From contig JAGOQE010000003.1 of assembly GCA_017991635.1 (NCBI GenBank), forward strand, positions 1 to 56,828: a stretch of DNA of 56,828 bases. Direction: 5' to 3'. The notes under the pieces were generated by a model. That model saw only the letters and a list, made by a program, of their open reading frames with translations, did not search any database and was not told where the DNA came from. Positions 15,939 through 17,646 of this stretch are shown here, piece after piece (positions within the stretch are counted from its first letter, which is position 1; each line of letters opens with the position of its first letter). A program made the translations under genes and the position numbers. The stretch comes from Minisyncoccota bacterium (GTDB lineage: Bacteria > Patescibacteriota > Minisyncoccia > Phycocordibacterales > Phycocordibacteraceae).

Positions 15939-17646
15939 AATGAGAGTTTGATCCTAGCTCAGGATGAATGCTGGCTGTATGGATAAGGCATGCAAGTCGA
16001 ACGGACCGCAAGGTCAGTGGCAGACGAGGTAGTAACACGTACGAACGCACCCCATAGTCTGGTATAGCTCGTCGAAAGACGGGGTAATCCCGGATGGTCC
16101 CGCAAGGGTAAAGATTTATCGCTATGGGAGCGGCGTGCGTAATATCAGCTTGTTGGTGAGGTAATGGCTCACCAAGGCTACGACGTTTAGGGGAGCTGAG
16201 AGGCTGACCCCCACCGATGGGACTGAGACACGGCCCATACTCCTACGGGAGGCCGCAGTCGAGAATCTTCCGCAATGGACGAAAGTCTGACGGAGCGATA
16301 CAGCGTGATGGACGAAGTGCCTCGGCACGTAAACATCTTTTATGTGGGAAGAAATTATTGACGGTACCACATGAATAAGGGGCTCCTAACTCTGTGCCAG
16401 CAGGAGCGGTAATACAGAGGCCCCAAGCATTATCCGGAATCATTGGGCGTAAAGGGTGTCAAGGCGGTTATGTTAGTCGTTCGTAAAATCCGGGGGCTCA
16501 ACCTCCGGCCCGCGAGCGAAACGGCATGACTAGAGGTTGGAAGAGGTGCGTGGAACTCACGGTGTAGGGGTGAAATCCGTTGATATCGTGGGGAACACCA
16601 AAGGCGAAGGCAGCGCACTGGTCCAAATCTGACGCTCACACACGAAAGCCAGGGTAGCGAACGGGATTAGATACCCCGGTAGTCCTGGCCCTAAACGTTG
16701 CTCGCTCGTTCTACGGAGTATCGACCCTCTGTGGGACTAAGCTAACGCGGTAAGCGAGCCGCCTGGGTAGTACGATCGCAAGGTTAAAACTCAAAGGAAT
16801 AGACGGGGACTCGCACAAGCGGTGGATCATGTGGCTTAATTCGTCGATAAGCGAAAAACCTTACCAGGGCTAGAAACCAAACTGCACGCTCCCAGAAACG
16901 GGAGAATCCTTCGAGGGTGTTTGGCAGGTGATGCATGGTTGTCGTCAGTTCGTGGCTTGAGCTGTTCCCTTCAGTGGGGTAACGAACGCAACCCTCGTTG
17001 TCTGTTATATATGTCAGGCGAGACTGCCCCCTCACGGGGGAGGAAGGTGGGGATGACGCCAAATCAGCATGTCCCTTGATGCCCTGGGCTGCACACGTGA
17101 TACAATGGACGGTACAGAAGGACGCAAGACCGTAAGGTGGAGCAAATCCCTAAAACCGTCCCCAGTTCGGATTGAGGTCTGCAACTGACCTCATGAAGCC
17201 GGAATCGCTAGTAATCCTGAATCAGCATGTCAGGGTGAATACGTTCTCGAGTCTTGTACTCACCGCCCGTCAACTCAAGGAAGCTGGGGGTACCCGACAT
17301 CTTGCCTCGCGCAGGACTACGGTAAATTCAGTGACAGGGAGTAAGTCGTAACAAGGCACGGCTAGCGGAAGCTGGTCGTGGAACATATCCAATCGGAATG
17401 AGATGTTCGAAAGAACACTCTCCGGTCGATGTTCGGAAGTTGCATGCTGGAAGTTAATATCATGGAGCGAATTTATTCGCCTCATATCGTTAGCTCCCAG
17501 CATGCAACTTCCGAATGAGAAATGGTACTCATCTCTAAATGGTACTCGGACGCCGGATAACGTGCCGGTGGCATACTCGGAAGCCTCAATTGAGCTTCTG
17601 AAGTGCCGAATAGGCGGAACACAAGAGCACACTCACACTCCTTTAG
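15939..17646 (+). rRNA. rrs: 16S rRNA. The core ends with helix 45 at about 17382; the canonical tail-like TCACaCTCCTTT lies at 17633-17645 after a roughly 250-nt insert
   Basis: Contains agagtttgatcctagctcag, actcctacgggagg, gtgccagcaggagcggtaatac, attagataccccggtagtcc, aaactcaaaggaatagacgg, gcatggttgtcgtcag, caccgcccgtca and aagtcgtaacaagg. The 3' end is ambiguous, either about 17393 or about 17646. Confidence 0.9.
17383..17632 (+). other. Structured insert/3' extension between 16S helix 45 and the anti-SD-like tail
   Basis: GAAA-tetraloop hairpin at 17400-17425. A 19-bp perfect stem (17432-17450/17498-17516). An 11-nt direct repeat aaatggtactc occurs twice. The last 25 nt belong to the processing stem. 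Confidence 0.5.

Follow-up and report, generated by a model that had tools for sequence, protein, structure and literature searches.

The 3' end of the 16S rRNA gene

This analysis concerns the 3' end of the 16S ribosomal RNA (rRNA) gene in a 56,828-nt stretch of DNA from a Minisyncoccota bacterium (contig JAGOQE010000003.1 of assembly GCA_017991635.1), which is called the window below. On the forward strand of the window the Rfam covariance model RF00177 detects the gene at 15936-17393 with 1361.8 bits (gathering score 50), covering model positions 1-1533, with helix 45 (h45) at 17357-17380 and the gene end at 17393. Behind this end lies a folded region of about 215 nt (17394-17607), here named the trailer, and behind the trailer follow strands which can pair with the leader upstream of the 16S gene (Table 1). 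A first-pass annotation made from the letters only had drawn attention to this place. It had noted that a near-canonical 16S tail stands about 250 nt downstream of h45, and had offered three readings: an insert which splits the tail and is spliced out, a mature 16S which ends near 17393 with a degenerate anti-Shine-Dalgarno (anti-SD) sequence, or an extension which is retained in the mature rRNA.

Two sets of relatives were used for comparison. The first comes from genomes scanned for a 16S pattern which has no relation to the tail, and comprises 120 loci, 12 of them close and about 20 distant; the pattern is broad, and Campylobacterota were also retrieved. In BLAST with the window 16S, the close relatives are metagenome-assembled genomes of Candidatus Paceibacterota/Minisyncoccia with 86-95% 16S identity, the nearest at 87.9-94.7% (among them L059, L096, L038, L117, L112, L076, L084, L007, L037, L061 and L006), and the more distant ones have 74-80% identity. 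The second set comes from a metagenome scan with the 20-mer GAATAGGCGGAACAMAAGAG and adds 120 loci with more than 100 distinct sequences. Because these were retrieved by exact match to GAATAGGCGGAACAMAAGAG, its invariance in this set is by construction, which is not so in the genome set. In viral contigs the scan with the 16S pattern gave no match.

In the Infernal alignment to the small-subunit (SSU) rRNA model the tail after h45 is full-length: its 13 nt, GAACAUAUCCAAU, align without gaps, column for column, with the canonical GAUCACCUCCUUU, and eight of the 13 positions are identical. The non-canonical sequence that had been noticed directly after h45 is therefore confirmed, and the canonical tail GAUCACCUCCUUA with its anti-SD CCUCC is absent from the 16S 3' end in the window. 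This tail is strongly conserved. In about 100 relatives GAACAUAUCCAAU is invariant or differs in one base, all close genome relatives read GGAACAUAUCCAAU after h45, and in the metagenome set nearly all loci possess a GAACAUAUCCAAU-type tail 190-265 nt upstream of GAATAGGCGGAACAMAAGAG.

Among the Patescibacteria loci the tails form a stepwise series (GGAUCACCUCCUUU, GGAUUACCUCCUUU, GGAUUACUUCAAAUUGAA, GGAUUAAUUCAAUUGAA, GGAUUAAUUCCAACUGGAA, GGAACAAUUCCAAUUGGAG, GGAACAUAUCCAAUCGGAA), and intermediates such as GGAUUACCUCC, GGAUUACUUCA, GGAUUAAUUCC and GGAACAAUUCC bridge GAACAUAUCCAAU and the canonical tail. The orthologues keep the length and the U8-C9-C10 of the 13-nt tail, with C10 lost in a few intermediates. 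Throughout the series positions ~9-12 remain complementary to positions ~17-20, as CUCC/GGAG in the canonical tail and as UUCA/UGAA, UUCC/GGAA or UCC/GGA in others. In the window this pairing would form a mini-hairpin, P0, across the predicted mature 3' end; its homologous pairs elsewhere read CUCA/UGAG, UUCC/GGAA and UCCU/AGGA, and CUCC/GGAG where the tail is canonical. In the subgroup of the window CGGA (17394-17397) can alternatively pair with UCCG (17421-17424), which lengthens the neighbouring hairpin P1 in the minimum free energy (MFE) fold. We regard the 13 nt after h45 as the real tail because of the same length and gapless alignment, the graded series, and the downstream architecture shared with canonical tails (see below). 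As judged from these comparisons, the tail has evidently diverged from GAUCACCUCCUUU in place by substitution, is linked to GGAUCACCUCC by steps, and has kept the P0 pairing by covariation.

A conserved folded trailer behind the tail

The region 17380-17720 folds at -155.6 kcal/mol versus -89.4 +/- 4.9 kcal/mol in shuffles (z = -13.5), so that the sequence which the first-pass annotation had called highly structured is indeed so. The trailer consists of the hairpins P1, P2, P3, P5 and P6 and an H-type pseudoknot. P1 is the GAAA hairpin noticed before. The 19-bp perfect stem of P2 is real as well, with the correction that its 3' arm lies at 17497-17515 and not at 17498-17516, and the duplicated aaatggtactc is present but corresponds to both strands of a near-palindromic stem (GGUACU/GGUACU) which belongs to the pseudoknot module.

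Covariation was analysed in an alignment of 56 relatives (A1). In this alignment 96.5% of the cells are paired versus 37-43% with slid partners, changes on both sides occur in 32 of 41 pairs, and the covariation score is 0.671 versus 0.22 in shuffles. P3 shows compensatory changes in seven of its eight pairs, and the central column pair of the pseudoknot (85-102) is G-C in 30 relatives, A-U in 26 and unpaired in none. The unpaired motifs GUCGAU, the CYCUAAA loop and AACG in the loop of P5 are invariant. The loop of P1 reads GAAA, GAGA or GGAA in relatives. P2 is in most relatives a hairpin of 14-30 nt capped by UUCG or GCAA, so the 86 nt in the window are unusually long. A similar structured stretch of about 150 nt follows the tail in all close relatives, and the trailer is found in all 12 close genomes and in about 100 metagenome relatives. 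The trailer is a real structured RNA, supported by covariation.

A search with Rfam 15 at E-values up to 10 over 17150-17800 revealed no intron, ribozyme or known small RNA, only hairpin noise of the miRNA type. The two open reading frames (ORFs) across the trailer (17403-17717 on the forward and 17270-17632 on the reverse strand) have no Pfam matches and were rejected as genes, because any reading frame would be disrupted by the varying length of P2.

The apical hexamer of P6 (columns 161-166 of A1) is self-complementary in all 56 relatives, being CAAUUG in 28, CACGUG in 16 and CAUAUG in 12, and its central bases change together. This hexamer may be a kissing-loop or dimerisation site, or reflect a tetraloop preference. 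A pairing of the P6 loop CAAUUG with the palindromic tail CCAAUUGG was considered; it is possible by sequence, but there is no covariation between the two.

The same architecture behind canonical tails

Intact or near-canonical tails with the same downstream architecture were found at the loci L053 (GGAUCACCUCCUUUCU), L104 (GGAUCAUCUCCUUUCU) and L018 (GGAUUUUCUCCU). In these a GNRA-capped P1 is followed by GUCGAU, by P2 and by a hairpin with a C-rich loop (..CCC..AAA), which is paired to a G-rich triplet immediately before the hairpin. The pseudoknot module thus occurs with other pseudoknot sequences in distant lineages, the canonical-tail locus L053 included, and the succession P1-GUCGA(N)-P2 stands behind canonical tails in most other Patescibacteria retrieved.

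The distant lineages were searched with an explicit structural descriptor, as the MAFFT alignment of the distant core modules was too poor for a second covariance model. The descriptor recovered 78 trailers, and in 2.95 Mb it also matched 55 other places; at canonical-tail loci it matched four times versus about 0.4 expected. On the trailers of L053, L104 and L024 the covariance model R1 hits the right positions, with only 7-11 bits.

None of the 12 close genomes lacks the trailer and has TCACCTCCTT directly after h45. The trailer is thus not missing from close relatives, and the canonical tail does directly follow h45 in more distant lineages, with the same trailer behind it. Unlike an intron or intervening sequence, the trailer is not patchily distributed among close relatives. 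Because canonical-tail lineages carry the same architecture, we consider the structured region as an ancestral 3' trailer behind a complete tail, and not as an insert. At L053 the segment of the trailer which immediately precedes GUCGAU pairs with the anti-SD. Because the trailer masks the anti-SD there, it would have to be removed or opened in canonical lineages for anti-SD function.

In nearly all Patescibacteria loci retrieved (L008-L122), canonical tails included, GGUCGA(N) and a directly adjoining hairpin stand 30-100 nt after the 16S tail. GGUCGA(N) could pair with the universal 16S 5' sequence UUGAUC in six pairs, two of them G-U.

The leader-trailer helix and the downstream anti-SD-like string

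The pairing of 15910-15936 with 17608-17634, which had been described with one mismatch and one G-U pair, is confirmed; it comprises 27 bp with the mismatch U15916/C17628. Past an internal loop this proximal helix resumes as a distal helix of about 19 bp. The proximal 5' strand carries TGTTCCGCCTATTC, which is common to the 28 relatives with the leader in the locus, and all 12 close relatives retrieved via the unrelated 16S pattern contain GAATAGGCGGAACAMAAGAG. Because its sequence is invariant, the proximal helix is uninformative on covariation. The strands of the distal helix differ among the 28 relatives and are complementary in all of them.

The anti-SD-like string TCACACTCCTTT, from which the idea of a split tail arose, is present at 17633-17644 and thus ends at 17644, not at 17645. 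It sits inside the distal helix, paired to the leader sequence AAAAGGUAGUG, and its strand is complementary to a purine-rich leader box in all 28 relatives with the leader in the locus. Conservation of the string, the lack of which the first-pass annotation had itself named as speaking against a split tail, was not found. In 116 distinct relatives the commonest form after GAATAGGCGGAACAMAAGAG is CGCAYACATCTTTTC, and many are unrelated; a few relatives read CACTCCTT or CTCTCCTTA, and L096 reads CACCTCCTTA. In most relatives the position of the string reads ACAUCUUUUC (ACATCTTTTC) or is unrelated.

Permuted queries matched the family-wide likeness to the canonical tail in 46 of 1000 cases for a 15-mer, 281 of 1000 for an 11-mer and 14 of 1000 for a 9-mer. 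These queries had a matched composition, and the downstream string exceeds them in likeness by a small margin only. When both strands of the window are counted, there are six 11-mers within one edit of TCACCTCCTTT versus 1.76 in shuffles, and the chance of such an 11-mer within 300 nt after the gene is roughly 0.5-1.6%. The earlier statement that the string is very unlikely by chance holds as far as this expectation goes, but the strand is pyrimidine-rich because of its pairing with the leader. On these comparisons TCACACTCCTTT appears to be the pyrimidine strand of the distal helix, and its likeness to the anti-SD to be compositional or due to chance.

The trailer strand UAGGCGGAA (17611-17619) resembles the 5' strand and loop of h45, UAGCGGAAG (17363-17371). 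Because of this resemblance h45 may be an alternative partner of the leader strand GUUCCGCCUA, and the two pairings might act as a switch in assembly.

Table 1. Features of the 16S transcription unit in the window, in order of position.
Feature	Position	Strand	Basis and remarks
Sigma-70-like promoter, TTGACG-17-TAGTAT	15800-15828	+	Consensus scan, 9/12 matches; just after a terminator-like hairpin (15744-15781); function putative
BoxB-like leader hairpin CTACCCCTGATTAAAGGGGTGG	15836-15857	+	Terminator scan; equivalent hairpin before the boxA-like element in relatives; putative role from the standard rrn leader layout
BoxA-like antitermination element TGACCTTTGATAA	15868-15880	+	9/13 identical to E. 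coli boxA TGCTCTTTAACAA; putative
Distal processing helix, 5' strand AATAGATCTAAAAGGTAGTG	15884-15903	+	Pairs with 17636-17654, two bulged leader bases
Proximal processing helix, 5' strand, adjoining the mature 5' end	15910-15936	+	Pairs with 17608-17634
16S rRNA gene (Paceibacteria/Parcubacteria, Candidate Phyla Radiation)	15936-17393	+	Rfam RF00177 covariance model
Non-canonical 3' tail GAACAUAUCCAAU in place of GAUCACCUCCUUU; anti-SD CCUCC changed to UAUCC	17381-17393	+	Gapless Rfam alignment
P0 mini-hairpin UCC-AAUC-GGA across the predicted mature 3' end	17388-17397	+	Covarying homologous pairs
P1 hairpin, GNRA loop GAAA at 17409-17412	17394-17424	+	MFE fold; compensatory changes in 6/7 counted pairs
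GUCGAU junction	17425-17430	+	Invariant in 56/56 aligned relatives, except one U-to-A at the last base
P2 hairpin of variable length, 86 nt here; 19-bp perfect stem 17432-17450/17497-17515	17431-17516	+	Compensatory changes in 6/6 counted pairs
Pseudoknot module, GAG 17517-17519 with CUC 17533-17535 in the P3 loop (P3 17524-17546); loop CUCUAAA	17517-17546	+	
P5 hairpin, conserved loop AUAACGUG	17552-17569	+	98.6% of cells paired; 2 pairs with compensatory change; AACG core kept
P6 hairpin, apical loop C-AAUU-G at 17587-17592	17570-17607	+	Compensatory changes in 7/10 pairs
Proximal processing helix, 3' strand (GAATAGGCGGAACACAAGAG...)	17608-17634	+	Pairs with 15910-15936
Distal processing helix, 3' strand, holding most of TCACACTCCTTT	17636-17654	+	Pairs with 15884-15903
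Long GC-rich hairpin and U-rich stretch, probable terminator of the 16S unit	17664-17709	+	22-bp stem in the MFE fold; putative

Translation signals in the clade

A convincing Shine-Dalgarno (SD) sequence was found for none of the 46 long ORFs of the window. In a set of 502 ORFs taken from 131 clade loci, 12.5% have an SD-like tetramer at positions -18 to -4 versus 12.2% in a control window, which is no enrichment. A motif TAnnnT starting at -12 is present in 16% of the 502 ORFs versus 1-3% in the background; position -11 is A in 43% of the ORFs, position -7 is T in 36% and position -1 is T in 42%. We take this as a leaderless signature because a -10 box so placed would start transcription at the start codon. 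The clade probably translates without SD pairing, largely on leaderless or SD-less mRNAs.

A loss of the anti-SD has been described for about half of the Parcubacteria (PMC9297842), and organisms without an anti-SD are generally without SD motifs (PMC6107228). Era, the reader of GAUCACCUCC, is lost in most bacteria belonging to the Candidate Phyla Radiation (CPR; PMC10582724). Like the anti-SD-less Parcubacteria (PMC9297842), the organism of the window has no CCUCCU at the 16S 3' end, belongs to the Paceibacterota and shows no SD enrichment.

GAACAUAUCCAAU varies as little as the canonical tail does elsewhere, yet a complementary motif near start codons is not enriched. A new anti-SD derived from GGAACAUAUCCAAU was also considered and rejected, as complementary k-mers are not enriched upstream of 500 ORFs.

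Interpretation and alternative explanations

The explanation that we favour, with a probability of about 0.6, is that the tail is not split. It would have been substituted in place with loss of CCUCC, and be followed by a conserved folded trailer of the precursor 16S (pre-16S) which is paired with the leader and removed, so that the mature 16S ends near 17393. Of the three earlier readings this is the one with a degenerate anti-SD, which is best supported and matches the published anti-SD loss in Parcubacteria (PMC9297842).

The transcription unit would run from the promoter-like site through the boxB-like hairpin, the boxA-like element and the two leader strands into the 16S and the trailer, and further through the complementary strands to the terminator hairpin, and the two-part leader-trailer helix would enclose the whole 16S together with the trailer. 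Because the 23S rRNA is unlinked, the 16S unit probably ends in this terminator of its own. The T-rich stretch of the hairpin is interrupted, and a simple terminator scan did not call it; an equivalent hairpin follows shortly after the stem in relatives. At the boxA-like position L096 reads CGCTCTTTGACAA.

From this layout we infer nucleases and an order of events as follows. A double-strand-specific RNase, presumably of the RNase III type, would cut the leader-trailer helix. The trailer may then act as a scaffold or mask in late assembly of the 30S subunit. Finally, an endonuclease would cut within the P0 loop or close to it, 3' trimming may or may not be involved, and the mature 3' end would be left near 17393. 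The removal of the trailer is suggested by homology, because in the canonical-tail locus L053 the anti-SD pairs with the trailer.

Several observations weigh against this explanation. The invariant unpaired motifs, the GNRA and UUCG loops, the pseudoknot and the invariant proximal helix represent more constraint than a discarded spacer normally shows, and would fit a retained or independent RNA. Because of its 19-bp perfect stem, the trailer could be removed only by an endonuclease or by a powerful 3' exonuclease. The covariance-model hits on the trailers of L053 and L104 are well placed but individually not significant (E = 0.41 and 0.066), and the metagenome relatives owe their retrieval to an exact match to the 20-mer of the proximal helix. 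Furthermore the positive control for SD usage is weak, with 14.6% versus 8.8% at canonical-tail CPR loci; the SD test is therefore not very sensitive, although there is still no signal at all in the clade.

Contig ends were also considered as a record of RNA ends. Logan contigs with the trailer ORF which start at about 17369-17401 read on into unique DNA and are assembly breaks. JGI contig ends show no pile-up, and public contig ends carry no RNA-end signal.

The constraint on the trailer could also be explained if it were retained as a 3' expansion segment of about 215-250 nt of the mature SSU rRNA, on the platform or mRNA-exit side. The proximal helix may still hold the segment to a short 5' extension, and the segment may replace anti-SD functions or serve another role, such as subunit dimerisation via the P6 loop. 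The GNRA and UUCG loops and the pseudoknot are indeed rRNA-like, the variable length of P2 recalls an expansion segment, and the invariant single-stranded motifs, the always self-complementary P6 hexamer and the dispensability of anti-SD function in the clade point in the same direction, as does the invariance of the proximal helix in relatives found via an unrelated pattern. But the same trailer stands behind canonical tails, where at L053 it would block the anti-SD, and the helix beside the mature 5' end looks like an ordinary processing stem. Moreover, a retained 3' extension of this size is not known to us from any bacterial 16S. This counts against retention, which we consider rather unlikely. 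We are similarly doubtful of a wider proposal in which the trailer either remains part of the mature 30S, as an expansion segment at the 3' end, or is a novel RNA device acting in cis to produce the 16S 3' end or to license it. If this were true, the trailer would take over a platform-side function, candidates being the capture of leaderless mRNAs by the invariant ACAUAUCC tail, or subunit pairing via the P6 loop.

Still less probable is an excision of the trailer as a separate stable non-coding RNA, in analogy to spacer tRNAs, or its action as a cis-acting catalytic or processing element which makes the 16S 3' end, in analogy to ribozymes that cleave at their own 5' end. Its position directly after the predicted mature 3' end, the compact, covarying, pseudoknotted fold and the strict junction nucleotides (GUCGAU, CUAAA, AACG) would suit such an RNA. 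However, the Rfam 15 search, ribozymes included, gave no match down to E = 10, the element is covalently embedded between the 16S and a strand of the processing helix, P2 ranges from about 14 to 86 nt, and nothing points to a target in trans.

Concerning the downstream string, an ancient duplication of h45 and tail could have left TCACACTCCTTT as a relic, a decaying second copy at the end of the trailer with no present anti-SD role. Comparing UAGGCGGAAC...AUCACAUCUUUUCU with UAGCGGAAG...GAUCACCUCCUUUCU of h45, one finds that the proximal-helix strand resembles the loop region of h45, and at L117, L037 and L137 the sequence GCATCACATCTTTTCT is identical to GGATCACCTCCTTTCT in 15 of 18 positions. 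These sequences are, however, phylogenetically dependent, the permutation test leaves only a marginal excess of similarity, and most of the likeness is explained by a pyrimidine strand paired to the purine-rich leader box. A relic is therefore quite improbable.

The splicing of an intervening sequence of about 250 nt between GGA (17380-17382) and the tail at 17633, with ligation to restore GGAUCACaCUCCUUU, has in its favour the chance expectation of about 1% for TCACACTCCTTT within 300 nt of h45, the CACCTCCTTA of L096 at the equivalent place and the frequent insertions in CPR rRNA genes, the 23S of the window among them, but is extremely unlikely, as the string is mostly ACATCTTTTC or unrelated in relatives, its likeness to the canonical tail barely exceeds that of permuted queries and the string covaries with the leader, while a full-length orthologue of the tail already follows h45, canonical-tail relatives carry the trailer behind their intact tails, no model of an intron or ribozyme gives a match, and there is no SD usage which needs a restored anti-SD.

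Relation to known systems

In the rrn pre-16S of E. coli and B. subtilis a leader-trailer stem for RNase III encloses the mature rRNA. The window is alike in the flank pairing of more than 20 bp, the boxA-like element upstream and the enclosure of the mature rRNA. The helix adjoins the mature 5' end but lies 215 nt past the 3' end, and this gap is filled by a pseudoknotted domain instead of a short linker. Domains of the internal transcribed spacer (ITS) in cyanobacterial and other rrn operons, such as the D1-D1' helix and box A/B, are structured and thought to guide processing and antitermination. The trailer resembles them as a structured, partly sequence-conserved spacer directly 3' of the 16S, but compensatory changes preserve its fold in relatives with as little as about 74-80% 16S identity, a pseudoknot and GNRA loops are part of it, and no 23S follows.

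CPR rRNA genes reportedly contain insertions and introns. Extra structured sequence associated with rRNA genes is common to both cases, and the 23S of the window has such an insertion of 410 nt. Those insertions interrupt conserved positions and are patchy, in contrast to the trailer, which stands after a complete tail in every relative examined and matches no intron model. Bacteroidetes initiate translation independently of SD sequences with an anti-SD that is retained but sequestered. They are thus alike in translation without SD pairing, but keep CCUCC, which the clade of the window has replaced.

The closest parallels are the anti-SD-less Parcubacteria (Tsurumaki et al. 2022, RNA 28:1041, PMC9297842) and the 128 exceptional organisms of Amin et al. 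(2018, PMC6107228), which also have no CCUCC after h45 and no SD enrichment. These studies report the absence of the motif; the window adds a strictly conserved GAACAUAUCCAAU, its stepwise derivation and a structured trailer. In our literature searches no 16S 3' extension, trailer or leaderless usage described for the CPR was found. The anti-SD loss in Parcubacteria has been published before; the replacement tail, the trailer domain across Patescibacteria and the leaderless signature are, as far as we could find, undescribed.

On the explanation favoured here the apparently split universal tail would disappear as an oddity from the most conserved end of the SSU rRNA. In its place there would be a large CPR clade in which the anti-SD tail was exchanged for a different, equally invariant sequence, with an elaborate trailer between the 16S and the processing stem. 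Both the invariant tail and the trailer represent targets for studying how ultra-small bacteria mature their ribosomes and initiate translation without SD pairing and without Era, and the trailer model could be used to annotate 16S ends and spacers in Patescibacteria genomes.

Genomic setting of the 16S unit

The 16S gene is unlinked from the 23S, because Rfam places the 3' part of the 23S and the 5S at 1-1044 of the window and the 16S at 15936-17393. The 23S-5S pair thus lies 15 kb upstream on the same strand. The 23S 3' part (1-821) is interrupted by the 410-nt insertion at 123-532, near model position 2620 of RF02541, in which no Rfam intron family was found at E <= 0.1 and no internal ORF of at least 80 aa. 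Directly upstream of the 16S promoter there is an ORF of 117 aa (15524-15877) without a Pfam match, which may not be a gene because the strong terminator-like hairpin at 15744-15781 overlaps its 3' end. About 980 nt 3' of the 16S, at 18371-18444, Rfam finds a tRNA-Ile(GAU), which has its own promoter-like site at 17714-17742.

In the loci L134, L138, L175 and L231 the leader strand and the trailer motif are 2.39-2.56 kb apart versus about 1.6 kb in most relatives. Because of this longer distance their 16S genes probably carry insertions of about 0.8-0.95 kb.

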